Below, one piece after another: positions 1,086 through 23,994 of a stretch of DNA of 23,994 nucleotides. Below the pieces are notes generated by a model, which saw only the letters and a program-made list of their open reading frames with translations, searched no databases and was not told where the DNA came from. Source of the stretch: Clostridia bacterium (GTDB lineage: Bacteria; Bacillota; Clostridia; Christensenellales; Aristaeellaceae). The stretch lies in assembly GCA_045599485.1 (NCBI GenBank), contig JAZRWA010000071.1, positions 1 to 23,994 of the forward strand, given 5' to 3'. Numbering within the stretch: position 1 is the first letter of the stretch; every line of letters starts with the position of its first letter. The position numbers and the translations under genes are program-made.

Positions 1086-1625
1086 TTAGTTTTCACCGGC
1101 CATGCGGCGGCGAAGGTCGGACAGACGGCGTTGGATGGTGTTATCCCACCGCTGACCATTCATTTCGACCATCACGCCGCCCATCAGCTTTTCGTCAATT
1201 TTTTCTGACAGTTTGACAGCCTTGCCCATGTTCATCGCGACAAGCTTCTGAAGCAGTTCACTGCGTTGAGAAGAGGTCAGAGGTTCAGCGGTGAATACGG
1301 TCGCTTCTACTATACCGTTAGCTTTATTGAAAGCATCACGGTAAGCTTCTTCACAGCCGGAAAATTCACTGATAGCGCCTCTTTCGCACAAAAGCTTGAG
1401 GAAATTCAGCAGGTAAGGCTGGATTTTGCCGCGCAGAGTGGTGTCAAGAATGCTGCAGCGTTCGTCCTTGTTGATGGACATGTTGCCAAGCAAGCGACAA
1501 TAATCGGGATTCTACTCGAACAGTGCGAGCAAATCGTGTAATTCCGATAGCACTTCAGCGCTGATTTTTTCTTCAGAACAAAGATCAAACAACGCTGTGC
1601 CATATTCCTTTGCCAATTCTGTCAC
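1086..1625 (-). CDS. atpH: F1Fo ATP synthase subunit delta (OSCP), 179 codons including one in-frame TAG at 1512..1514
   Basis: The track shows only 1086..1493 (135 aa). The same frame read upstream gives GTG(1625..1623)-TELAKEYGTALFDLCSEEKISAEVLSELHDLLALFE-TAG-NPDYCRLLGNMSINKDERCS.... This restores the normal delta-subunit length. The GTG overlaps the atpF stop (GTGA). Terminal stop is TAA. Confidence 0.85.
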
Positions 1626-2505: not shown

Positions 2506-3402
2506 TCAGGCGCGGACGGCTTTGCGCTGTTTGCGCTTCGCCTGACGTGCCTCATAGGCTTCCTACGGGAAGCCGTTTGCAATGTACAGCATCGTCAGCA
2601 TGGCAAAGATGAATGCTTGCAGACAACCGCTGAACAAATCGAAGTAAAGAGACAGGACTGCAGGAAGACCTACTTGCAGCGTGTACTGTCCAAACACACC
2701 CGGCAGCCAGCCGAGGATGGTTTGTGTCAAACCCTGCAACGCGGAGGCAATCAGTGTCGAGATGACAACGCCGCTCAACACATTGCCGTAGTGACGGAAT
2801 GCCATGGAGATGGGCGTTGCAATTTCGCTGATGACATTAAATGGAGCAAACACAGGAATCGGATCGGCGAACCCTTTGATGTAACTCCACAGACCGCCTT
2901 TCAGCTTGTAGTAGGTGATCAGGATGAAAACCAGAATCGCCCAGCCGGCAACAATGTTGATATCCGAGGTGGCCGGATGAAGGCCTACCAGACTGGAGAG
3001 GCTGGACAACGCACTCAACGCCATGATTGCTGCGACAAACGGCGCAAAGCCTTCAGCAAAACGCTCGCCCATATTGGACTGAACAAAGCTTTGCGCCTTT
3101 TCAACCACAAATTCGGCGATAATCTGTCGCTTGGAATCGGGGATTACTTTCAGACCGTGCGTGAAAAACAAACACAAGCCTAAAGTGGAGATGGTGACAA
3201 TGAGCGAGTTGACTTGAGATTCGGTTATCGGCAGATCCTGCACAGGCATGGGAATTGTAAAGTAAATGAGCGAACCTGTGACGGTGATGCCGTCATGCGG
3301 AGGTTCCGTCATTGCTTTTAGAATCATTCCCAAAATGAAAGGCACAATGATCATCAATATCAGCAGGATATCAACAACGCGTGCTTTCGTTTTTGCGTTC
3401 AA
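2506..3402 (-). CDS. atpB: F1Fo ATP synthase subunit a, read through the in-frame TAG at 2563..2565 (under the standard code it would end at 2563)
   Basis: Polytopic protein with the conserved a-subunit Arg region (ISMAFRHYGNVLSG). The track ORF stops at TAG. The frame then continues EAYEARQAKRKQRKAVRA to TGA (2508..2506), 33 nt before the atpE ATG. The start is uncertain: TTG 3402..3400 lies 10 nt after GGGAGG, while the track start at 3486 would overlap atpI. Confidence 0.72.
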
Positions 3403-3454: not shown

Positions 3455-3925
3455 TCAGCCCTTTGTTCGGAGACTGATGATGGCAATCACGATACGGGGG
3501 AAGAGCAGCGGGAGAATACCGGCCAGGCTATCAAAGCAAGGCAATTGAACGGCAATGATAGCCGCGACGGCGACCAAAATCAAACGCGCAATATAGGAAC
3601 GCTGCATTTGCTCTTTGGATTCTTTGATTTCGGGAATGTCAACACTGCCTGTGTCGATCTGCTGCGCGCTCTCTTCGCTCTAACCGGAATTTTCCGATTC
3701 ATTAGAGATACGAACACCGTTCATACGTCTGCTGGCTTTTTGAACAGAAAGTCCCAACAGAAAGAAATTGAGAACAGCAATGGATGAACCCCAAAGTGCA
3801 CCAAGAAGAACAGTGATGTCGAACCTTTTAAGCAGAAGAAATACCGCAAGCATTAGTGCGGACAACACTCCGGTCCCGGCTGCGATTCGCAGTGTTTCTT
3901 TTTTTACTGTTTCATCAATCTGCAC
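3455..3925 (-). CDS. atpI: ATP synthase protein I-like small membrane protein, 156 codons including an in-frame TAG at 3680..3682
   Basis: GTG start at 3925, 9 nt after AGGAGG. The track ORF (81 aa, two TM helices) stops at TAG. The same frame continues SEESAQQIDTGSVDIPEIKESKEQMQRSYIARLILVAVAAIIAVQLPCFDSLAGILPLLFPRIVIAIISLRTKG (two more TM helices) to TGA 3457..3455. First gene of the atp operon. Confidence 0.65.
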
Positions 3926-3964: not shown

Positions 3965-4594
3965 TTATTTGGTACCGTACAGACGGTCACCTGCATCGCC
4001 GAGACCGGGGAGAATATAAGCGTGATCATTCAGGCATTCATCCATGGCGGCTACGTAAATATCGACATCGGGATGGTCGGCCTGAACACGTGCCACACCC
4101 TCGGGGGCGGCAATCAGGTTCAGCATGCGGATGTGCTTGCAACCGCGATCCTTGATGAATTGGATGGCCGCACTGGCACTGCCGCCGGTAGCCAGCATGG
4201 GATCGACCACGAGAATCAGACGCTCGGTGGAATCAGCTGGCAGCTTGCAGTAATACTCAACGGGCTCGTGGGTCTCAGGGTCACGGTACAGACCGATATG
4301 GCCCACCTTGGCAGCGGGGATCATGTTCAGTACACCGTCCACCATACCCAAACCGGCACGCAGAATCGGCACGACGGCAACTTTGCGTCCCGCAAGGCGT
4401 TTCACTGTCGCCTTGCACATGGGGGTATCGATCTCCACATCCTCAAGCGGCAGGTCACGGGTAGCTTCATAGACCATCAGCATGGAGATTTCTTCCAGCA
4501 ACTCACGAAATTCCTTGGCTCCGGTGGTCGTCTATCTCATGATACCCAGCTTGTGCTGGATCAGCGGATGATCGAACACATGAACAGAACTCAT
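3965..4594 (-). CDS. upp: Uracil phosphoribosyltransferase, 209 codons including an in-frame TAG at 4532..4534
   Basis: The track gives 178 aa from an internal TTG. Upstream in the same frame: RBS AGGAGG, ATG(4594..4592)[51 protein letters not shown]..., which is the canonical Upp N-terminus. C-terminus is [17 protein letters not shown]. Stop is TAA. Confidence 0.92.
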
Positions 4595-4844: not shown

Positions 4845-5423
4845 ATGCTCAATCGTGTCCAGGATAAACTGCTGTTACGAAGTAATGTATCTGGGATGCA
4901 TTTTTTGGTTACCGGACCGCAAAAATCTCTTTTACAATGGGCGTTGACAGATGATTACAGTGCTGTGCTCGATATGAGCTGCAACACTACATCATTGCTT
5001 CAGGCATTAAACTGGAGGTACTGTGTTCGAAGCTGTGGAATCGCCGAAACAACAGAAAAAGCACGGATTCTAAGGCAGGACTGCCCAGACGCGGAAATTT
5101 TTGCTGCAAGGACCGAAGACATCCCATGGAAGAACGAAACCTTTGATGTCGCTTTTCTTGAAGTACATCAAGCAGAAAGCGCTATAAATGAAAAGACACT
5201 TGCAGAAGCTAACCGTGTGCTAAAAAAAGGCGGACAGATGTTGATTGCACTGGAAGGGATGCCTGAGTGGATTCAAAAGACAATGGCATTTCTCGGACTC
5301 AAAGATATCGAAGATACAATGACACGCATTTCCCTTTTAAATGGGATGGCTCATGCGGGCTTCAGAGATATCACATGGAGAAGGACAGGACCGAACGTCG
5401 GAATAGCGATTGGATGGAAGTGA
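4845..5423 (+). CDS. Class I SAM-dependent methyltransferase-like protein with a degenerate motif I
   Basis: ATG at 4845 follows the RBS GGGGGAAG (the track start 4815 is an upstream TTG). Methyltransferase-fold landmarks are present: VLDMSCNTT where VLDxGCGTG is expected, FDVAFL, and LKKGGQMLIA. Stop is TGA. Confidence 0.6.
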   Translation: MLNRVQDKLLLRSNVSGMHFLVTGPQKSLLQWALTDDYSAVLDMSCNTTSLLQALNWRYCVRSCGIAETTEKARILRQDCPDAEIFAARTEDIPWKNETFDVAFLEVHQAESAINEKTLAEANRVLKKGGQMLIALEGMPEWIQKTMAFLGLKDIEDTMTRISLLNGMAHAGFRDITWRRTGPNVGIAIGWK

Positions 5424-5433
5424 GGATTTAATA

Positions 5434-6081
5434 ATGAAGAAAAGTATAGGGATTGTTCTCGAAGGTCGGGATATGTTGCTTTATAATCAGCGCTGCAGAG
5501 ACTGGACGCATTATTACGATTATATACAGCCGATGAAACAGACACTCTCCAATGCCGGCTGCGGTATTTTTTCTGTATGTCACGCAGGACAGTGGCTGAC
5601 CGGCAAGGTCTTTGATCCGGCTCAGCTGGCGGAGTTTTCGATGGAAAACGGCGGACGCGGTGACGACGGCACGGATCGCCCTGTGCTGCTTGCTGCCATG
5701 ATGAGCAAAGGTATTGCAACGGACTTTGGTTTTTCTTACCATAATGATGGGCTCAGAAATGATCTGGACACGCTGAGGACGCATTTGCTCAATCATCGGG
5801 GATGCGCTTTGTGCAACCTGCGGGTCGGGCATATTGTCACGCTTGTTGATGCCAGGGAAATGGACGGAGAAATTCAGGTGCTGGCCATTGACTCTTACAG
5901 TGAGAGCGCCGATCAGCGTGTAGCTCCGCATGTAAAGGAAGTTATCAAAGACAGTAAAATCATTGCTACTGTCTACAACGAAGTAAAGGTAGCTGTGGGC
6001 GAAACCCATCAGTATATGGCATACTGGGTGAGCAGCAATATCGTCCGGGATTTTAACCTTCTCCATAAGATTCAAGGATAA
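5434..6081 (+). CDS. Hypothetical cytoplasmic protein, possible papain-like (C39-like) cysteine peptidase fold
   Basis: ATG at 5434, 7 nt after GTGAGGA. Q..(n)..NAGCGIFSVCHAGQWLTG followed later by VGHIVTLVD resembles the Gln/Cys...His arrangement of C39-type peptidases (weak, motif-level only). The TAA stop overlaps the next ATG (TAATG). Confidence 0.55.
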   Translation: MKKSIGIVLEGRDMLLYNQRCRDWTHYYDYIQPMKQTLSNAGCGIFSVCHAGQWLTGKVFDPAQLAEFSMENGGRGDDGTDRPVLLAAMMSKGIATDFGFSYHNDGLRNDLDTLRTHLLNHRGCALCNLRVGHIVTLVDAREMDGEIQVLAIDSYSESADQRVAPHVKEVIKDSKIIATVYNEVKVAVGETHQYMAYWVSSNIVRDFNLLHKIQG

Positions 6082-7799
6082 TGAGTACTTGTATGAAAAA
6101 AAGACAGCTTATCATCTACATACTGATAGTCTGTATCTTTTTTTCAATGCAACCAAATGTACATGCAGCCGGAAAGGCTAATGGTATCATCAGGGTTCTT
6201 TTGACAAGATTCAATCTGACTGACCGTGTTGACTTGGCTTTGGATGGCAGTTATACCATCCAGGGAATCGCATTTCAGCGCGGATCGCATGTTACGATTT
6301 CATCTTCAAAAGGGACTCTGATGCTTTATTATGAAGGCATGGCGTTGGATTGCGGAAAAGAGATGACGCTGCTTCGGCATGCAGTGACAGACAACAAAGA
6401 GAATGGCCTGCGTATCAACGGTGAAATGAATCTATATTGCGGCGACTTGCATCTGTATACCGAAAGAGGATTGATACAGGCCGTGCTGCATATCCCTGTG
6501 GAGGAGTATCTTTTAGGCGTTGTTCCCTATGAGATGAGCGATTCTTTTCCTGTGGAAGCACTGAAAGCGCAGGCTGTTGCAGCACGCACGTATGCGATGA
6601 AAAAAGCCTCGAGTGCTACCGGTAGATACGATGTTTATGACAATACCAATGATCAGGTCTTCAGGGGGTACAACGCAGCCAATAAAAATGCCATATAGGC
6701 GGTAACGCTTACAAATGGTATCTGCGGATATTATCGTAATGAACTGGCCACCTGTTATTATACCGCCAGCAACGGTGGTCAGGTGGAGATCCCATAGAAT
6801 GTGTGGGGGTCAAAATACGGATACATCACAATGCATGATGATCCTTATGATGTGGAAAACCCCGAAAGCCCCGTAAAGCGGGCTGTTGTCCCAAAGCATG
6901 ATCCCGAAGGAATCGTATATAACAAGGAACTGACAGACTATATTAAGACTCAGCTATCATCGGTTTTGTTGTTAAAGGGGTATACCGGTGATCCTTCTGA
7001 AATATGGATCGATGCGGTGCTCGGAATTCGATGCGAAAGTGGAGGAAAGCAGCTTGAGACAAAAGTTTCCAATACCATGGTATTTACTTTGAAGGTCAGT
7101 GCTTGCAAAGAGCTTTCGGCTGCAGCCATGGATACCCAGGAAGTGGAACTCTTTGGCATCGGTAAACAAAGCGAACACAGCAGCGAGTATCGTGAGCCAA
7201 ACAGAAATACCATTCCCCTGGAAGATGCGGTATAGGTGAAAGTGCCTGTATTTGCTGCGATTGAGCCGATCATGGGGCTTTCCATTAATGGTTCTGATAA
7301 CGAGATCATCACAGTCAATGAACAGGAAGAGAGTTTCGTTATCGAATCAAGGCGCTATGGTCATGGGGTTGGCATGAGCCAGAGGGGAGCGCAATGGTTG
7401 GCAGGGCATTATCACTGGACTGCGGAACAGATATTGAAGTTCTATTATCCGGGACTTACATTTATGGCTGTGGGAACTTCTGCTACACCGCTGCCTGCGA
7501 TTGAGGCGGATTTTCTGGCAACTCCGGGGCCTGCTGCAACAGCAACCCCAAGGCCGACTCTGATGCCGTCCAGCGCTACCCCTAATCCGGGGGAATGGAT
7601 CGTAAAAGTGACGGGAATTTCCGAGAATTCAAGCCTGAACCTGCGATCAGCTGCCGGAACGGATTCGTCCATCGTAAGGGTTCTGTATTACGGTCAGCAG
7701 CTGATCGCTTCTGCTTGCGATATTGAGGGCTGGATTAAGGTAAGGACCGATGTGGCCGAAGGCTATGTGATGGAAAAATACGTGGAAAAAGTAAAATAA
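6081..7799 (+). CDS. Secreted SpoIID/LytB-domain protein with a C-terminal SH3b-like domain, 572 codons including three in-frame TAGs (6696..6698, 6795..6797, 7233..7235)
   Basis: Track ORFs 6081..6698, 6801..7235 and 7236..7799 share one frame and are separated only by TAG codons. Signal peptide MKKRQLIIYILIVCIFFSMQPNVHA. SpoIID landmarks are EALKAQAVAARTYA, the 32 codons between the first two TAGs (AVTLTNGICGYYRNELATCYYTASNGGQVEIP), and RRYGHGVGMSQRGAQWLA. A Pro/Ala/Thr linker leads to an SH3-like tail. The start could instead be ATG 6093. Stop is TAA. Confidence 0.85.
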
Positions 7800-7837
7800 A
7801 ACAAAAGAGCGCGATTGATATCGTGCTCTTTTGTTTG
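7798..7837. terminator. Bidirectional rho-independent terminator between the convergent SpoIID-like gene and tgt
   Basis: Stem ACAAAAGAGCGCG (7801..7813) pairs with CGTGCTCTTTTGT (7822..7834), with an 8-nt loop and T-rich runs on both strands. Confidence 0.7.
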
Positions 7838-9719: not shown

Positions 9720-10577
9720 TCATTTAAATTGCCATCTTCCGCTGGCACCACAGGGGAGAACACCACCGGATGTTACAGGCAGAACGACCTACTGGGCATC
9801 GACGCAACCGCCAAAGCGGCGTACGACGGCCCGGCCGATGACATTTTGCAGCACAGCCGGCTGGAAGCCCGTTGTATAGCTGTTGACAAGGAAAAACAAG
9901 GGTTCGCGAGAAAGCACCTGCGCGCAGGTATCCACCAGCGTATACAGCTCATTTTCAAGCTTCCATACTTCGCCATTCGGGCCACGACCGTAACTGGGCG
10001 GATCCATCAGGATGCCATCGTAGGTATTGCCGCGACGAATTTCCCTGCGGACGAAACTCAACGCATCTTCGATAATGAAACGACAGCTGCTTTCCGGCAG
10101 ACCGCACAGTTCACGGTTTTCCTTTGCCCACTGAACCATGCCTTTGGCAGCATCCACGTGAGTGACATGGGCACCTTCCGCTGCACAAGCAACGGTGGCT
10201 CCACCAGTGTATGCAAACAGATTCAGCACTTTTGCTTTGCCGCGTTCCCGGATCAAACTGCGCATCCAGTCCCAGTTGGCGGCCTGCTCAGGGAAAAGAC
10301 CGGTGTGCTTGAAGCCTGTCGGCTTTACATAAAAGCGAAGATCCTTATATCCGATCTGCCATTTTTCCGGCAGCTTCTGCATAAACTCCCATTCGCCGCC
10401 ACCTTTTTCGCTTCGGTGGTAATGCGCTTGCGCCTTTTTCCAAAGGGAGCCGTCGCCCGCAGGCCAAATCACCTGCGGGTCGGGACGGCACAAAACATAT
10501 CGGCCCCAACGCTCTAATTTGTCGCCGTTACCGGTATCGAGAACTTCAAAATCCTGCCATTGATCGGCTATAAACAT
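9720..10577 (-). CDS. Class I SAM-dependent (rRNA-type) methyltransferase, read through the in-frame TAG at 9789..9791 (under the standard code it would end at 9789)
   Basis: ATG 10577..10575 overlaps the ileS TAA (TAATG). MFIADQWQDFEVLDTGNGDKLERWG...VLNLFAYTGGATVACA...ILMDPPSYGRG. After TAG the frame continues VVLPVTSGGVLPCGASGRWQFK to TGA 9722..9720, 13 nt before the next gene's ATG and just upstream of its RBS. Confidence 0.78.
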
Positions 10578-13708: not shown

Positions 13709-13940
13709 GTATTTGCTCCTTTCGGAATCTTTGCATAAGGAAAGCCTGTCCTCCCCATGGGACGGACAGGCCGCGGTACCACCCAAATTGACGCAAAAAA
13801 GCATCCTCTTTTAGCCGGATAACGGCGGCTGCCGTGAAATGAATCAACGCTCCGGGATGATCTGGTGCAGGCTTTGCTGCCGGTTTTCAGCTGCTCCGGC
13901 TCTCTGAAAGCATCCACAGGCACCCGTTCCCATCATTGCA
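13709..13940 (-). promoter_or_regulatory. T-box riboswitch leader (Ile specifier) with a terminator/antiterminator upstream of ileS
   Basis: On the minus strand: the AGAGAG stem I motif, a candidate specifier AUC followed by A (..CACCAGAUCAUCC..), the T-box sequence AAUUUGGGUGGUACCGCGG (13789..13771), then the terminator hairpin CCUGUCC-N12-GGACAGG (13770..13745). Confidence 0.8.
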
Positions 13941-13946
13941 ATTAGC

Positions 13947-13975
13947 ATTATAGCAAAATTTCCGACGCTTGAAAA
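13947..13975 (-). promoter_or_regulatory. Candidate sigma-A promoter for the ileS T-box leader
   Basis: On the minus strand: TTTTCA (13975..13970), a 17-nt spacer, then TGcTATAAT (TATAAT at 13952..13947). Confidence 0.5.
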
Positions 13976-13996
13976 GCCCCTAAATGGCATAAACGC

Positions 13997-15205
13997 TTAA
14001 ATCAATACGTGAAAGGCACCGTAAACATTGAATGCAAAACCGGCAATGAGAATCATCGCTTCCGGCAAAAACATTTTTCTTTTACGTCCCGGCAGGGCCA
14101 GATAAATGAGAGGATAAATCAGCAAGTCGCAGGTGTAACGTGCTCCGAACTGATAACCTCCAAAGGTTCTGTGAAGCAGCAGAAGGAAGAAATGTAAAAG
14201 AAACAATGCAATTGTGAGTCCTTTTACGAAGTCGAGACGTTTTTTGAACAAGTCGGAGACGAACCAGAACAGCATCAGCAACAGAACCGGATTTACAAAT
14301 ACAAACGAGAAGCCGAAGGCATTCATAGAGCCGGTCGGATTGAAAGGCAAGGTGAAGATAAAGGTTTGGACGTTCTTTGCCACATGACTGAGCGAAAACT
14401 GAATGCCGCCCTGCGTGGAAAATTCTGGGAGATAATTATGGCCAAACTCAAAAATATTCCCGAAGCGGAGATAGTTATAGGCACCAAGCGCGACGGCCAC
14501 CATCAGACCAAGCAGCGTGCCCGGAATCAAGGCACGCAGGATATCCCGGATGCTTTTCTATTTTCGTGAGCGTGTAAAATATACAAGATACAAAAGCGGC
14601 CCATAGAGGGCATTGAAGGGGCGGCAGCCAACTGACAACGCGTACAGAAACAGACCGATCGTCGGACGATAACAAAATATGCAGGCTGCGGCACACGCCG
14701 TCAGAGCATAGGCAAGCGTTTGAGCCTGGAACCATACGGCGCCGTTGGTGGTCAGAGTAAGCAGGCAGGTAGCAAAGCTGAGAAATAGGGCAAAACCTGC
14801 GCAGCTTGCTTTGTCATAACCGGATTTGCGCAGCATGTAGTAGCATCCGAGGCATCCCGACAAGACATAGAGTTTCACCAGCAGATGATCAGGCGTCTGG
14901 CTGCCGAAGAAGAATGTAAGCAGGTACAGGGGAATGCTTGGAACGGGGGGAAAGGAAACATACCAATCCCCCTGATAGACAGCCAGCTCCAACCATGGAT
15001 AATCCATCCCGAGGGAGAGCTTTCCGTTGCGCCAGGTCAGGGCTTGCAGGGTATAGGTGCTATAGCCGGAAGTACCCGTGGGGCTGATGTGCAGAAGCGT
15101 GCATAACAGCGCATAAAACACAGCGCAGCCCCATACCAACAGCAGCGGAGTATAATATGCCCGCTTCAGACGATGACGGATTTGCACTTTATTGTCTGTT
15201 TTCAT
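13997..15205 (-). CDS. Polytopic membrane protein, ArnT/PMT-like (GT-C fold) glycosyltransferase candidate, 402 codons including an in-frame TAG at 14558..14560
   Basis: Track ORFs 14558..15205 and 13997..14530 are in the same frame. The junction reads ...LLYLVYFTRSRK-TAG-KSIRDILRALIPGTLLGLMVAVALGAYNYLRFGN.... About 10 or more hydrophobic helices. The ATG overlaps the end of era by 17 nt. Stop is TAA. The functional call is weak. Confidence 0.65.
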
Positions 15206-16088
15206 AACCGAGTGTTTTCAAATCGGCGGCAGAATTTCGCCAGTTCGGACGGACCTTGACCCACAGCTGCAGGTTGACATGCATTCCAAGAAGGTTTTCG
15301 ATATCCTGACGGGCTTCCTTGCCGATCAAAGCCATCATGGCTCCTTTTTTTCCGATGATGATGGATTTGTGCGAATCCTTTTCGCAGTAAATATCGGCAT
15401 GGATCTCGATCAGTTTGTCACTCTTCTTTTCCATACCGAGAATTTCGATGCCGATGCCGTGCGGCACTTCATCACGAAGGTGCAGAAGTGCCTTCTCACG
15501 AATCAGCTCGGCGCAAATAATTCGTTCAGGCTGATCGGTCAGCATATCATCGGGGAAGTACTTGGGTCCGGGCTTTAGATGACTCAACAGTTCGGATTTT
15601 AATTCTTCCAGACCATCGCCGGTCCTTGCGCTGATGGGCAGCACAGCGGTGAAGTTCATATCCTTGAAACGCGCTATGCATTGAAGCAGACGCTGCGGCT
15701 CAATCAGATCGATTTTATTGAGAACCAGGATCGCGGGCACTTTTTTGTGGGACATTTCTTCGGCAATCGACAGGTCCTGCGGTCCAATGGCGGTAACATC
15801 GGCCAGTACCATCAGGGCATCGATGCCATCCATGCCTTCCTGGACTGCTTTCATCATGAAAGTGCCGAGCTGGGTGCGCGGTGTGTGGATACCGGGGGTA
15901 TCGACAAAAATCATCTGATAATCATCGCCGCCGCAGATGGCCATCAGTTTATTTCGTGTGGTCTGCGGCTTGGCGGATACAATGGCGACTTTTTCACCGA
16001 TCAGGGCATTCAAAAGGGTGGATTTACCAACGTTCGGGCGTCCCACGATTGCAATGAATCCGGAACGGAAAGGGCGGTTTTCAGACAT
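15189..16088 (-). CDS. era: GTPase Era
   Basis: 299 aa. G1 GRPNVGKST, DTPG, NKID and a C-terminal KH domain are present. Uninterrupted. Stop is TAA. Confidence 0.96.
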   Translation of the reverse strand: MSENRPFRSGFIAIVGRPNVGKSTLLNALIGEKVAIVSAKPQTTRNKLMAICGGDDYQMIFVDTPGIHTPRTQLGTFMMKAVQEGMDGIDALMVLADVTAIGPQDLSIAEEMSHKKVPAILVLNKIDLIEPQRLLQCIARFKDMNFTAVLPISARTGDGLEELKSELLSHLKPGPKYFPDDMLTDQPERIICAELIREKALLHLRDEVPHGIGIEILGMEKKSDKLIEIHADIYCEKDSHKSIIIGKKGAMMALIGKEARQDIENLLGMHVNLQLWVKVRPNWRNSAADLKTLGYENRQ

Positions 16089-16091
16089 AGT

Positions 16092-19427
<3,336 letters not shown>

Positions 19428-19431
<4 letters not shown>

Positions 19432-20381
19432 TGCTTTTGGGTCCTTTCGAAATTCTCGTATGCTTTGACGATGCGCTGTACCAGCTCGTGTCTTACTACA
19501 TCTTCAGAGCGCAGCATGGCAATAGCGACACCCGAAACATTTTTTAATACCTGCAATGCTTCCCCGAGACCACTGCGTTTGTCCCGCGGCAGGTCGGTTT
19601 GTGAGATGTCACCGGCAACAACGCATTTTGCCCCTGCGCCGAGACGTGTCAGGAACATTTTCATCTGTTCACAGGTGGTGTTTTGTGCTTCGTCAAGAAT
19701 AATGAAAGCGTTGTTCAGCGTTCGGCCGCGCATAAATGCAAGAGGAGCAACTTCGATGGCGCCACGTTCCTGCAGACGCTGGTATGCATCCGTCCCCAGC
19801 ATGTCATAAAGAGCATCATAGAGCGGTCTGAGGTATGGGTCAATCTTCTGCGTCATATCACCGGGCAGAAAACCAAGCTTTTCTCCGGCTTCCACAGCCG
19901 GCCGTGTAAGGATAATGCGCTCGACTTCTTTTGATTTCAGTGCCCGTACAGCAAGCGCCATGGCCAGGTAGGTTTTGCCGGTTCCCGCCGGTCCCGCCGC
20001 GATGGTCAGTTCGTGATTGCGGATTGCTTCCACATACTGCCGCTGTCCGTTGGTTTTGCAGCGAATCGGCTTGCCGCGATGGTTGTAGGCAACGATATCG
20101 GCGGAAATAAGCTCATCGGTTACTTCGGTTCCCTCTTTGATCATAGAAGCAAGGTAACGGACGCGAATGGGGTCAATACTTTCTCCGCTGCGCAGCATCT
20201 TCAGCAGCTGCATGATGACGTTCTCAGCTCGCGAAACGTTTTCGCTTGCTCCGGTAATACGCAGCTACTGACCGCGCAGCACAGCAGTGACTTCAAGCTC
20301 TTCTTCAAGCGTAGAAATATTGCAGTCGTTCATGCCAAACAGCAAACGATAGTACTCTGTGTTTTCCAATGATAACAGCAA
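19428..20381 (-). CDS. phoH: PhoH-family ATPase, 317 codons including an in-frame TAG at 20265..20267
   Basis: The track ORF (261 aa) lacks the N-terminal domain. The same frame upstream gives TTG(20381..20379)-LLSLENTEYYRLLFGMNDCNISTLEEELEVTAVLRGQ-TAG-LRITGASENVSRAENVIMQLLKML... after the RBS AGGGAGA. Walker A is GPAGTGKT. Stop is TGA. Confidence 0.85.
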
Positions 20382-20431: not shown

Positions 20432-20437
20432 ATGTTT

Positions 20438-20465
20438 ATCATACTATATTCTGGCATTTTGTCAA
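20438..20465 (-). promoter_or_regulatory. Candidate sigma-A promoter for the phoH-pgpH-ybeY/cdd-era operon
   Basis: On the minus strand: TTGACA (20465..20460), a 16-nt spacer, then TATGAT (20443..20438). Confidence 0.45.
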
Positions 20466-20485
20466 TCGTTATTGCCGGAAACGCA

Positions 20486-20520
20486 TAATAAAAAAGCCTT
20501 CCCATGAAGGAAAGGCTTTT
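20486..20520 (-). terminator. Rho-independent terminator after the HPr-like gene
   Basis: The minus strand reads AAAAGCCTTTCC-TTCAT-GGGAAGGCTTTTTTATTA: a GC-containing stem followed by a T run, immediately 3' of the TAA at 20529..20527. Confidence 0.75.
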
Positions 20521-20526
20521 GATGCA

Positions 20527-20754
20527 TTAGATTTTGAACTGGGTGATGTCGTTTTCCAGATCGGGGCAGTCATCGGTATAGACTTCCAGAGCGATCGGAC
20601 GGCTCAGGTCGAGGGAGAAGATACCGAGGATGGATTTGGCGTCAACCACGTGGCGGCCGGCACGCAGGTCCATGTCGTAATCATAACGGTTGACGATGTT
20701 GACAAAAGTCTTCACTTCTTCGGCGAAGCTGAGCTTGATCGGAATCGATTTCAT
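20527..20754 (-). CDS. HPr-family phosphocarrier-like small protein
   Basis: I chose the start at ATG 20754 (MKSIPIKLSFAEE...), 9 nt after AGGAGG. The track start 20763 abuts the RBS. The ...VVDAKSILGIFSLDLSRPIALEV... region resembles the HPr Ser46 region. Stop is TAA. Confidence 0.7.
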   Translation of the reverse strand: MKSIPIKLSFAEEVKTFVNIVNRYDYDMDLRAGRHVVDAKSILGIFSLDLSRPIALEVYTDDCPDLENDITQFKI

Positions 20755-20790
20755 CGAAAGCATCCTCCTGATTTGATTTTGAATAATATG

Positions 20791-20818
20791 ATTATACCTG
20801 ATTCGGTATAAAAATCAA
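20791..20818 (-). promoter_or_regulatory. Candidate promoter for the HPr-like gene
   Basis: On the minus strand: TTGATT (20818..20813, overlapping the gltX stop), a 16-nt spacer, then TATAAT (20796..20791). Confidence 0.4.
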
Positions 20819-22275
20819 GTATTGCCGAGAAGTTTTTCAATGCCGTTTTCGACGCGGCGCAGCGTTTCGTCCTTCCCGAGCAAATAAGCAATTTCAAACG
20901 CACCGCCGGGGGTGGAGAGAAGGCCGCTGATGGCAATTCTCAAAGGCCACAATACAGCACCGTTCTTTTTGCCGGACACCGCAATGGCTTCCATCACGGT
21001 ATCATGAATGACGGCTTCGTTCCAATCACCAATTGATTCCAGGATGGGTCTGATCTGCTGAAGCGCATCCAACGACACTGCGGGGTCGGTCTTCATTTTC
21101 TTATTGGTGTATAGTGCGATGTCATATTCAGGCAGGTCAGCCAGGAAAGCGACCATTTCCGGGACGCGGTTGAATACTTCGGTGCGTCCTTGCATCAGTT
21201 CCGCCAGACGTTTGTAATCAATTCCGCGTCCAGCCAGCGCACGGTCGAACCACGGAGTAACTATCGCAAGATACTCTTCAAAGGGCATTTTGCGGATGTA
21301 CTCTGTGTTGAACCAGGTCAGCTTATCCATGTCAAAAATGCCCGGGGCGTTGTTCAGACGATTGATATCGAACGCCTCAACAAGCTCTTCCATCGTGAAG
21401 AACTCTCTGTCATCACCGGGATTCCAGCCTACAAGGGCCAGATAATTGATCAAGGCTTCCTTCAGATAGCCCTTGGAAACAAAGTCACTGTAATAAGCGT
21501 CGCCGTCACGCTTGGAAAGCTTGTGGTGGGCGTCACGCATAACGGTAGTGAGATGGACATACTGAGGAATCTCCCAGCCGAAAGCATTATAGAGAAAATT
21601 ATACTTCGGAGTAGAGGAAAGGTATTCCATACCGCGCATGACATGGGTAATGCCCATCAGGTGATCATCAACGACGTTGGCGAAGTTGTAGGTAGGCATA
21701 CCATCCTGCTTGATGAGGATCATGTCGTCCATGGCTTCGTTGTTCGGGAATGTCAGATGACCGAACACAGCGTCATCGTAAGTGGACTCTCCGGTCGTGG
21801 GGGCGTTCATACGAATCACATAGGGAACACCTGCATCCAGCTTCTGCTGGATTTCTTCCTTTGTCAAGCTCAGACAATGCTTGTCATATTTAAAGACCTC
21901 ACCGCGGCTTTCGGCAGCGCTTCTGCGCTCATCCAATTCTTCTTTCGTACAGAAGCAATAGTAGGCAGCGCCTTTTTCAACAAGCTGCTTGGCATAGGGC
22001 AGATACAGGTCTTTGCGGTCGGATTGAATGTACGGACCGCAGGGGCCGCCGATATCGGGACCTTCATCCCACTGCATCCCGCACTCGCGAAGCGTATTGA
22101 AAATCACCTCGGTGGCACCTTCAACAAAACGCTCCTGATCGGTATCTTCGATGCGGAGAATGAATTTGCCGTTATTCTTTTTGGCGTAGAGATAATTGTA
22201 AAGTGCCGTTCTGACACCACCCATATGCATAAAGCCGGTGGGGGAAGGTGCGAAACGGGTTCTAACTTCTTTCAT
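20815..22275 (-). CDS. gltX: Glutamate--tRNA ligase
   Basis: 486 aa. MKEVRTRFAPSPTGFMHMGGVRTALYNYL (HIGH-type region) and the KLSKRDG (KMSKS) loop are present. RBS is AAGGAG. Uninterrupted. Stop is TGA. Confidence 0.95.
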   Translation of the reverse strand: MKEVRTRFAPSPTGFMHMGGVRTALYNYLYAKKNNGKFILRIEDTDQERFVEGATEVIFNTLRECGMQWDEGPDIGGPCGPYIQSDRKDLYLPYAKQLVEKGAAYYCFCTKEELDERRSAAESRGEVFKYDKHCLSLTKEEIQQKLDAGVPYVIRMNAPTTGESTYDDAVFGHLTFPNNEAMDDMILIKQDGMPTYNFANVVDDHLMGITHVMRGMEYLSSTPKYNFLYNAFGWEIPQYVHLTTVMRDAHHKLSKRDGDAYYSDFVSKGYLKEALINYLALVGWNPGDDREFFTMEELVEAFDINRLNNAPGIFDMDKLTWFNTEYIRKMPFEEYLAIVTPWFDRALAGRGIDYKRLAELMQGRTEVFNRVPEMVAFLADLPEYDIALYTNKKMKTDPAVSLDALQQIRPILESIGDWNEAVIHDTVMEAIAVSGKKNGAVLWPLRIAISGLLSTPGGAFEIAYLLGKDETLRRVENGIEKLLGNT

Positions 22276-22284
22276 AAAAACTCC

Positions 22285-23985
22285 TTATTTGACAGGCTTA
22301 TAGCTGTCCTTCAGGCTGACAACACGATTGTAGACGGGAAGAGTATCGGTGCTGTCGGGATCTTTGCAGAAATAGCCCATTCTCAGGAACTGGAAGGTGC
22401 TGCCGTTCGGGCAATTGCCGAGGAAGGGTTCAGCATAACCGTTCACTTTGATCAGGGAATGATCCGAAAGGAATCTGGTAACATCTTTTTTTTCGGCGGC
22501 ATCGGCAGTATCCCACTCTTCGGTCATCAGCTGATCGTAAAGACGGGCTTCGAAAGGTACGCAATCCGCTGCGTTGACCCAATGGATGGTGCCCTTGACT
22601 TTACGGTTAGCGCCTTCGCTGCCGCTGCGGGAATCCAGATCGACAGTACACTCAACCGCAGTAACGTTGCCGGCTTCATCATGCAGGATGTTTTCGCATT
22701 TGATGATATAAGCGCCCTTGAGACGGACCTCTCCATCGGGCTTCAGGCGAAAGAACTTCTTGGGAGGAATCTCTTCAAAGTCTTCCTTCTCAATCCAGAT
22801 TTCACGCCCGATCGTAACGGAATGCGAACCGAGCTCGGGATGATCGGGATGATTCTCCATTTCCAGCGTATCTGACCAATCTTTGGGTACATTGGTCAGA
22901 ATGACCTTCAGGGGATTCAGGACGGCCATGGCGCGGGGAGCCTTGCTGCCAAGATCATCGCGCACACATGCTTCGAGCATGGCGATATCCACAACAGAAT
23001 CCACCTTGGAAAGACCGACGCGGTCAATAAAATCACGGATGGAGGAGCCGGTAAAACCACGGCGACGCATACCGCAAAGGGTGGGCATACGCGGGTCATC
23101 CCAGCCAGTGACATAACCTTCTTCGACAAGACGGCGCAGGTGACGCTTGCTCATGACCGTTCTGGTCAGGTTCAGACGGGCAAACTCAATCTGACGGGGT
23201 CCGTGATAGACATGACCGTTGATACGGCTTTCATTACGGAAACCGGCTTTTTCCGCAACCCAGTCATACAGAGGACGATGGTCTTCATACTCGAGCGAGC
23301 ACAAAGAATGCGTAATGCCTTCCAAGGCATCACTGATGGGGTGAGCAAAATCATACATCGGATAGATGCACCATTTGCTGCCCGTTCTGTGATGCTCTTT
23401 GTACAGAATACGGTACATGGCAGGGTCGCGCATGTTGATGTTGGGGGAAGCCATATCGATCTTCATGCGTAGGGTATATTTCTTTTCGGGGAATTCGCCG
23501 GCGCGCATGCGGCGGAACAGGTCCAGACTCTCCTCGGCGGGGCGATCTCTCCAGGGACTGTTTTTGCCCGGTTCGGTCAGGGTACCGCGATATTCACGCA
23601 TCTGATTGGGATCCAGTTCATCCACATAAGCCAAACCGCGGAGGATAAAATCTTCGGCGATTTCGTACAACTTGTCATAGTATTCACTGGCGTAGAACAG
23701 ACCGCCTTTCCATTCAAAGCCAAGCCAGCGGATGTCCTCCATGATGCCGTCAACATACTCGGTTTCTTCTTTTGCAGGGTTGGTATCATCAAAACGCAGG
23801 TTGCAAAGGCCATTGTATTTTTCAGCAGTACCAAAATCGGTCACCAGCGCTTTACAGTGACCGATATGAAGATATCCGTTCGGTTCCGGAGGGAAACGCG
23901 TATGAATCTCTTCGCAGCGTTCTTTTTCGAGATCTTCATTGATGGCATCCCATATAAAATTGCTTTTTTCGATTGTTTCTTCCAT
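22285..23985 (-). CDS. glnS: Glutamine--tRNA ligase
   Basis: 566 aa. IHTRFPPEPNGYLHIGHCKA, the VMSKRHL loop and a C-terminal anticodon-binding beta-barrel region (GTIHWV...YFCKD) are present. Uninterrupted. Stop is TAA. Confidence 0.95.
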   Translation of the reverse strand: MEETIEKSNFIWDAINEDLEKERCEEIHTRFPPEPNGYLHIGHCKALVTDFGTAEKYNGLCNLRFDDTNPAKEETEYVDGIMEDIRWLGFEWKGGLFYASEYYDKLYEIAEDFILRGLAYVDELDPNQMREYRGTLTEPGKNSPWRDRPAEESLDLFRRMRAGEFPEKKYTLRMKIDMASPNINMRDPAMYRILYKEHHRTGSKWCIYPMYDFAHPISDALEGITHSLCSLEYEDHRPLYDWVAEKAGFRNESRINGHVYHGPRQIEFARLNLTRTVMSKRHLRRLVEEGYVTGWDDPRMPTLCGMRRRGFTGSSIRDFIDRVGLSKVDSVVDIAMLEACVRDDLGSKAPRAMAVLNPLKVILTNVPKDWSDTLEMENHPDHPELGSHSVTIGREIWIEKEDFEEIPPKKFFRLKPDGEVRLKGAYIIKCENILHDEAGNVTAVECTVDLDSRSGSEGANRKVKGTIHWVNAADCVPFEARLYDQLMTEEWDTADAAEKKDVTRFLSDHSLIKVNGYAEPFLGNCPNGSTFQFLRMGYFCKDPDSTDTLPVYNRVVSLKDSYKPVK

Positions 23986-23994
23986 GGCGGAATC

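Follow-up and report, generated by a model that had tools for sequence, protein, structure and literature searches.

Three in-frame TAG codons in one SpoIID/SH3_3 gene of a gut Clostridia clade: UAG as a probable sense codon, most likely read as glutamate

Here we analyse a SpoIID/SH3_3 gene that carries three in-frame TAG codons on contig JAZRWA010000071.1 of a Clostridia bacterium (assembly GCA_045599485.1, Aristaeellaceae). The whole stretch of 23,994 nucleotides that was analysed is called the window. The best explanation of our observations as a whole, to which we give a probability of roughly 0.72, is that this is one SpoIID gene, that UAG is a sense codon in the clade to which the window belongs and that the residue it encodes would be glutamate. 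The sequence comparisons indicate that translation continues through TAG, that this is specific to the clade and that the positions involved are under glutamate-like constraints.

On the plus strand the single frame from 6081 to 7799 runs for 572 codons before a TAA (7797-7799), and its only internal stops are the three TAG codons. Read with the standard code it is split into open reading frames at 6081-6698, 6801-7235 and 7236-7799, plus a 32-codon piece without a usable start. The frame at 7236-7799 opens with a GTG that follows the third TAG without a gap, and the 32-codon piece, AVTLTNGICGYYRNELATCYYTASNGGQVEIP, offers a single start-type codon, a GTG that lies four codons short of its end. 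Translation may in fact begin at the second ATG (6093, MKKRQL...), where the genes of relatives and the public gene call start; the frame would then have 568 codons. Two relatives are used throughout. X1 is a strain of about 97.7% identity in an independent gut metagenome run, at a depth of about 5x, with a contig that covers 5985-7323. L081 and L165 are Logan contigs from SRR27361835, a relative 86% identical in nucleotides and colinear with the window over 2375-23994. The parts of the gene are:

6093-6170, plus strand: probable signal peptide or membrane anchor MKKRQLIIYILIVCIFFSMQPNVHAAG, read from the basic-hydrophobic-AxA pattern of the sequence; relatives' genes start at MKKRQ.
6474-6731, plus strand: Pfam SpoIID domain, residues 132-217, which contains VPYEMS...EALKAQAVAARTYA and spans TAG206; aligns with 4rwr_A 61-204 and 5i1t_A 63-205.
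6696-6698, plus strand: in-frame TAG at codon 206 (TAG206); TAG in X1, CAG in L081.
6795-6797, plus strand: in-frame TAG at codon 239 (TAG239), directly 5' of the conserved NVWG; TAG in X1, GAG in L081.
7233-7235, plus strand: in-frame TAG at codon 385 (TAG385), at the end of a family-specific insertion; TAG in X1 and L081.
7311-7463, plus strand: C-terminal SpoIID core, residues 411-461, RRYGHGVGMSQRGAQW...YYPG, 3' of all three TAGs; aligns with 4rwr_A 268-317 and is invariant in orthologues.
7629-7784, plus strand: SH3_3 cell-wall-binding domain, residues 517-568 (Pfam; 2kq8, cell wall hydrolase SH3), with a Pro/Thr/Ala-rich linker before it.

The domain matches extend across the TAG codons. 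The SpoIID profile PF08486 matches with an E-value of 7.6e-24 and 84.6 bits against a gathering cut-off of 23, over profile positions 5-96 of 97, and the SH3_3 profile PF08239 with 9.3e-10 and 39 bits against a cut-off of 27. The solved SpoIID structures 4rwr, 5i1t and 5txu align in two stretches, residues 133-263 across TAG206 and TAG239 and residues 411-461 after TAG385, and therefore the catalytic core requires both sides. The piece AVTLTNGICGYYRNELATCYYTASNGGQVEIP falls in the conserved core of these structures, VPYEMS aligns with VASEMN and LAGEMS of 4rwr and 5i1t, and GHGVGMSQRGA, after the third TAG, aligns with their GHGVGMSQYGA and GHGVGMSQWGA. We take the catalytic glutamate of the xxEM motif and the GHGxGMSQxGA motif to have the roles given to them in the SpoIID structure papers. 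Peptides that run across the TAG sites would read NAI[E/Q]AVTLTNGICGYYR and ...VEIP[E/Q]NVWGSK. The predicted product is a peptidoglycan hydrolase of the SpoIID family, secreted or anchored, with SH3_3 at its C-terminus. It resembles the SpoIID/LytB lytic transglycosylases (PF08486) in its profile match, in VPYEMS...EALKAQAVAARTYA, YYTASNGGQ, NVWG and GHGVGMSQRGA, and in its signal peptide and C-terminal SH3 domain. It differs in an additional beta-rich region at the N-terminus (about residues 30-130), in the roughly 130 residues inserted into the core, which they split, and in its three TAG codons; its identity to the solved SpoIIDs is limited to the core.

A search of 5.8 billion proteins found more than 100 orthologues at 57-59% identity, all of them single SpoIID+SH3_3 proteins of 573-576 amino acids, typically 574. 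Between X1 and the window there are 30 differences over 5985-7323 and none of them falls in a TAG. When the whole SpoIID gene is compared in its single frame, 23 changes are synonymous and 13 non-synonymous, and the two codons just 5' of TAG239 carry synonymous changes in X1 while TAG239 itself is unchanged. Against L081, the ratio of non-synonymous to synonymous substitution rates (dN/dS) is 0.097 for codons 5-205, 0.054 for codons 207-238, 0.121 for codons 240-384 and 0.054 for codons 386-572, and 0.088 overall, with a segment dS of 0.6-1.2. These comparisons indicate that 6081/6093-7799 is one functional gene with a frame under purifying selection.

An earlier note on this DNA, made from the sequence alone, had anticipated much of this. 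Its single 572-codon frame with three TAGs agrees with frame, Pfam, orthologues and dN/dS, the coordinates bear out its three open reading frames in the same frame with one starting at 7236 directly after a TAG, and the alignments to solved SpoIIDs place the 32-codon piece in the conserved core and GHGVGMSQRGA beyond the third TAG, as it had said. The SpoIID family profile that it proposed to align has been run, and the match spans TAG206. The note had also considered that the orthologues might be three separate genes with starts of their own; they are single 574-aa proteins.

The TAG codons are not a peculiarity of this gene. In the 7,536 codons of the annotated frames of the window we find 14 in-frame TAG codons (0.19% of codons) and no in-frame TAA or TGA, which goes beyond chance. 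They are spread over 11 genes, among them atpH, atpB, an atpI-like gene, upp, SpoIID (3), an rlmI-like gene, a membrane protein gene, cdd, a PgpH-like gene (3) and phoH. The window is a bacterial chromosomal contig that contains atpA-H-F-E-B, the atpI-like gene, upp, a methyltransferase gene, an unknown gene, SpoIID, tgt, rluD, the rlmI-like gene, ileS, the membrane protein gene, era, a ybeY-cdd fusion, the PgpH-like gene, phoH, gltX and glnS. Its 19 complete genes end in TAA (11) or TGA (8) and never in TAG.

In-frame TAG is also present in five further assemblies of the clade, namely L081, L165, L082, L084 and X1. The window and the SRR27361835 genome have six TAG sites in common, and L081 and L165 have five more of their own. 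The atpB and atpI sites of the window recur in L082 and L084, two ENA assemblies of 90-94% identity, and in X1 all three TAGs of SpoIID and all three of the PgpH-like gene are kept. The nearest relatives with a standard code are L166 and L167/L168, which are syntenic and have Era proteins 76-78% identical, and L001-L007 (tgt 65-76%). No in-frame TAG was found in the 9,072 codons of L166 and L167 (6,420 and 2,652), nor in L001-L007, and the genes of these relatives are intact. TAG as a sense codon thus appears to be clade-wide, present in the clade and absent in its sister.

The densest use of TAG observed lies beyond the right end of the window, in tilS of L165 (574-1834, minus strand), which has four in-frame TAGs and whose read-through ends in a TAA abutting hpt. 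This gene encodes the tRNA-Ile lysidine synthetase, which is normally essential. Codon use in the window is uneven, with GAG 146 against GAA 364 and CAG 186 against CAA 63, and AAG about equal to AAA; in the sister genome L167, GAG is used 192 times against 239 for GAA.

Our comparisons of the TAG sites outside SpoIID address which residue is inserted. In the list below, relatives are standard-code relatives where this is stated, and the last two sites are found in L165.

1512-1514, minus strand: in-frame TAG in atpH (ATP synthase delta subunit); Glu in 17 of 22 relatives; CAG in L082.
2563-2565, minus strand: in-frame TAG near the C-terminus of atpB; TAG in L082 and L084, CAG in L081 and L083.
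3680-3682, minus strand: in-frame TAG in an atpI-like small membrane protein upstream of atpB; TAG in L081 and L082.
4532-4534, minus strand: in-frame TAG in upp (uracil phosphoribosyltransferase); Asp/Glu in solved Upp; GAG in L081.
9789-9791, minus strand: in-frame TAG in an rlmI-like PF10672-type S-adenosylmethionine-dependent methyltransferase; Glu in 7 of 7 standard-code relatives; TAG in L081.
14558-14560, minus strand: in-frame TAG in a polytopic membrane protein (13997-15217); ACA in L165; variable column.
16335-16337, minus strand: in-frame TAG in the cdd part of ybeY-cdd; aligned with the catalytic CAE-motif Glu of all solved cytidine deaminases (CDA) and of 5 of 5 relatives; TAG in L165; no coverage in X1.
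17236-17238, minus strand: in-frame TAG in the PgpH-like gene, before an acidic C-terminal tail; AAG in L165; unchanged in X1.
17434-17436, minus strand: in-frame TAG in the HD-domain region of the PgpH-like gene (pgpH690); Glu in the four closest relatives; TAG in L165 and X1.
18703-18705, minus strand: in-frame TAG in the PgpH-like 7TM-HD protein; Gln in 8 of 9 and Glu in 1 of 9 relatives; TAG in L165; unchanged in X1.
20265-20267, minus strand: in-frame TAG in phoH (phoH57); GAG in L165; Glu in the five closest relatives.
pgpH codon 108: TAG in L165; Glu in 9 of 10 standard-code homologues.
Membrane protein codon 265: TAG in L165; Glu in standard-code homologues.

Given that TAG is sense, these columns make glutamate the likely inserted residue, with glutamine and mixed decoding as serious alternatives. 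The cdd site is the most informative in the window, and the cdd domain 3' of this TAG has a dN/dS of 0.028 against L165. Across the aligned UAG columns, at least five appear to be conserved glutamate positions against only one conserved glutamine position. Where the window and the SRR27361835 genome differ at a TAG, the partner codon is GAG or GAA at 7 sites, CAG at 2 and another codon at 3, and BLOSUM scores, summed crudely over 16 columns, come to 37.3 for E, 21.9 for Q and 13.0 for K. If UAG means glutamate, this pattern is what one would predict, since a change from GAG to TAG is synonymous anywhere and one from CAG to TAG is a conservative Gln-to-Glu replacement at tolerant sites. If UAG meant glutamine, TAG would be expected mainly at conserved glutamines and never at a catalytic glutamate. 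Some sites say less. The upp column is mostly Asp in 60 diverse Upp proteins and is weak evidence on the residue, and for atpH and phoH the solved structures were either too remote or lacked the TAG site.

The earlier note had regarded the SpoIID gene as a good test of the inserted residue, and here we disagree with it. The three TAG columns are variable in the 574-aa orthologues, with R/S/K/Q at codon 206, R/S/E at codon 239 and Q/T/I/S at codon 385. The column of TAG206 is Glu in both solved SpoIIDs and that of TAG239 is Glu in 6 of 10-12 distant homologues. The highest TAG density of the window, which the note had assigned to this gene, holds by count, where it is tied with the PgpH-like gene at three each, but not per codon, where atpH, upp and the atpI-like gene are equal or denser.

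The first question for any alternative is whether the TAGs are read at all. They might terminate, and the SpoIID locus would then be a pseudogene or three separate genes. Gene callers that use the standard code do split it, and the public record contains a first fragment of 201 aa (P0242), while the first fragment of L081 is a 380-aa call (P0001) that ends exactly at the codon-385 TAG; the GTG that opens the third piece fits this reading as well. It is very improbable all the same, because the middle 32-codon piece is without a usable start and the orthologues are single proteins, because dN/dS is about 0.12 or less in all pieces while the SpoIID core spans both sides of the TAGs, and because 11 housekeeping genes are broken only by TAG and never by TAA, TGA or a frameshift. 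We give still less credence to sequencing or assembly errors or to contamination. The window is a single metagenomic contig and the depth of X1 is low, but the same TAGs are found in X1, SRR27361835, ERZ27247129 and ERZ27247131 in a pattern that tracks phylogeny, and the neighbouring genes are ordinary syntenic Clostridia genes. Misreads caused by 7-deazaguanine or oxidative damage were ruled out by the inheritance of the TAGs across genomes 2-14% apart.

Among the readings in which TAG is sense, glutamine is the alternative with the most to say for it. It would be a code similar to code 15, with a supE-like tRNA-Gln(CUA) charged by the glutaminyl-tRNA synthetase (GlnRS) of the window. To our knowledge, TAG-to-Gln is the only amber reassignment in prokaryotic viruses. 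TAG alternates with CAG within the clade at three sites (atpB, atpH and SpoIID codon 206), 8 of 9 relatives have Gln at the pgpH column 18703-18705, the window carries glnS (22285-23994) and C-to-T is the easiest mutational route. Glutamine is nevertheless unlikely. At the catalytic Glu of CDA it should inactivate the enzyme, yet the TAG is kept in two genomes with the low downstream dN/dS given above; Glu is conserved at the rlmI, pgpH108, phoH, pgpH690, memb265 and atpH columns; the GAG/GAA partners outnumber the CAG partners by 7 to 2, and the BLOSUM sum prefers E by about 15 units. Ambiguous or partial decoding is a somewhat more doubtful candidate. It would involve a suppressor tRNA competing with a retained release factor 1 (RF1), a Glx-type tRNA that gives both Glu and Gln, or pyrrolysine. 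The columns are of both Glu and Gln type, TAG is rare, the best-conserved genes of the window (atpA, ileS, tgt, era, gltX and glnS) have none, and SpoIID of L081 ends in TAG TAA TAA, all of which would suit such decoding. Partial read-through would be costly, however, with TAG at catalytic or core positions of housekeeping genes and four times in tilS, and six TAG sites have persisted in genomes that differ by 14%. Pyrrolysine is implausible at catalytic or other Glu columns, and the window holds neither a methylamine methyltransferase context nor pylTSBCD.

Several observations weigh against reading UAG as glutamate in this clade. The greatest weakness is that there is no visible adaptation of the glutamyl-tRNA synthetase (GluRS) to an anticodon with A36, which leaves the charging with Glu unexplained. 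We see no such adaptation because the GluRS of the window keeps an Arg at the position of Arg358 of the T. thermophilus enzyme (ELMQGRTEVF) and is of the discriminating type; we take Arg358 of T. thermophilus GluRS to read C36 of tRNA-Glu. No tRNA genes were found in the window, L081, L082 or L165, and a tRNA(CUA) was thus not seen there, and prfA, the RF1 gene, was not found in the 24-kb contig or its retrieved flanks. In X1, three contigs matched the tRNA-Glu of L075 and, in this small sample, none had an anticodon variant. The Gln-type pgpH column and the alternation of TAG with CAG belong here too, and with glnS in the window a supE-type Gln suppressor would pose little mechanistic difficulty. 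The absence of TAG from the 19 gene ends is weak evidence for lost termination at TAG because the sister clade, too, seldom ends its genes in TAG (2/23), and the contrast has a p of about 0.17. The case for glutamate is built on sequence comparisons.

If glutamate is the residue, a simple history can be proposed. UAG would have become a rare sense codon (about 0.2%) in this shallow, uncultured clade of gut Clostridia, and only TAA and TGA would end genes there. A Glu-charged tRNA with the anticodon CUA would have to exist, and RF1 would have been lost or become ineffective. Codon capture is the likely route, starting from few TAG ends, since the sister clade already has few. TAG could then have re-arisen from GAG, a synonymous change that would be permitted even at catalytic sites, and also from CAG by a C-to-T transition, a conservative Gln-to-Glu change at tolerant sites. 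The genes for both synthetases, gltX (GluRS) and glnS (GlnRS), are adjacent in the window at 20815-23994 on the minus strand, and neither holds a TAG.

We think it fairly probable that UAG has changed from a stop to a glutamate codon throughout the chromosome in this clade; this would be the first bacterial sense reassignment of UAG and the first prokaryotic stop-to-Glu code. No report of a bacterial UAG reassignment came up in our literature search, which covers its own library only and is no proof of absence. The prokaryotic-code surveys of 2026 (a screen of 2.7 million assemblies, the gTranslate preprint and the Eggerthellaceae UGA paper) describe bacterial stop reassignments as UGA cases only. 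The natural chromosomal stop reassignments of bacteria have so far been confined to UGA, and UAG has been a sense codon in phages (Gln), users of pyrrolysine (Pyl) and eukaryotes.

The comparison with these systems is instructive. The bacterial UGA-to-Trp/Gly codes (codes 4 and 25, in Mycoplasmatales, Absconditabacteria/Gracilibacteria and some Eggerthellaceae) are like our case in that a stop becomes sense genome-wide in a coherent clade while the other stops terminate. In the lineage of the window, however, the codon is UAG, the factor expected to be lost is RF1 and not RF2, the amino acid is another one and the GC content is about 50%. The TAG-to-Gln phages (code 15; crAss-like, Lak and other gut phages) share with it the TAGs in conserved genes, the gut habitat and the fragmented gene calls, but the recoded genes of the clade are housekeeping genes on a bacterial chromosome (atp operon, upp, cdd, phoH, tilS) and the conserved columns point to Glu rather than Gln. 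In some archaea UAG means pyrrolysine genome-wide (Kivenson et al. 2025, as cited in the gTranslate preprint). There too UAG is sense throughout, and coding density falls very little when code 11 is applied; the window is bacterial, and the residues aligned with its TAGs are Glu, one of them catalytic, and not sites of pyrrolysine enzymes. A stop read as glutamate is found in the eukaryotic UAR-to-Glu codes of peritrich ciliates and Blastocrithidia nonstop. These are nuclear codes that alter UAA and UAG jointly, whereas UAA is the main terminator of the window (11/19).

If true, the reassignment would be a new entry in the genetic-code table, from a free-living gut bacterium with balanced GC content, and a natural counterpart of the RF1-free, amber-reassigned state that has been engineered in E. 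coli. It would imply a tRNA-Glu(CUA) and probably the loss of RF1, offer a candidate natural pair of amber-decoding tRNA and GluRS, and bear on the interplay of TAG-recoded phages and their hosts. TAG-recoded lineages are hard to notice because coding density barely falls. Standard pipelines break TAG-bearing genes, as the 201-aa SpoIID fragment on record illustrates, and this distorts annotation and pseudogene counts.

Some further observations concern the neighbouring genes. The PgpH-like frame, read past its last TAG, ends in a TAA that overlaps the start of ybeY-cdd by 8 nt, as it does in standard-code relatives. The tail that this adds (16990-17235, minus strand) has 81 residues, is very acidic and poorly conserved, and has a dN/dS of 0.094 against L165. 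The ybeY (endoribonuclease) and cdd genes are fused in one open reading frame of about 302 codons (16092-16997, minus strand), and the same fusion (PF02130 + dCMP_cyt_deam, 302-304 aa) is found in the standard-code L166, L167 and L169. In atpB, the 18 codons past the TAG (2506-2562, minus strand) form a basic tail, EAYEARQAKRKQRKAVRA, and the site is polymorphic, since three assemblies have TAG and two have CAG. No Rfam family matched at the gathering threshold anywhere in the window, including the leader of about 290 nt before ileS (13709-13996), where no T-box was found.

In the standard-code sister genomes, gltX and phoH flank the sporulation genes yabP and yqfD (L166 174-1567; L167 4226-5613). 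The window (20436-20814) and L165 lack yabP and yqfD at the syntenic place. It may be that the clade with sense TAGs has lost yabP/yqfD, or sporulation. Because yabP-yqfD is missing locally, the SpoIID homologue may act in vegetative wall remodelling rather than in engulfment. A structure model of the orthologue P0002, built from a 15-sequence alignment, was poor, with a mean predicted local distance difference test score (pLDDT) of 50.5 and the SpoIID core below 50. At the 3' end of the gene, L081 reads ...GAA AAG TAG TAA TAA (5404-5421) and the window GTA AAA TAA. Between the convergent SpoIID and tgt genes follows one last feature:

7801-7836, no strand assigned: GC-rich inverted repeat with T/A runs, AAAAGAGCGCGAT..ATCGTGCTCTTTT, which, as read from the sequence, is probably a two-way terminator.

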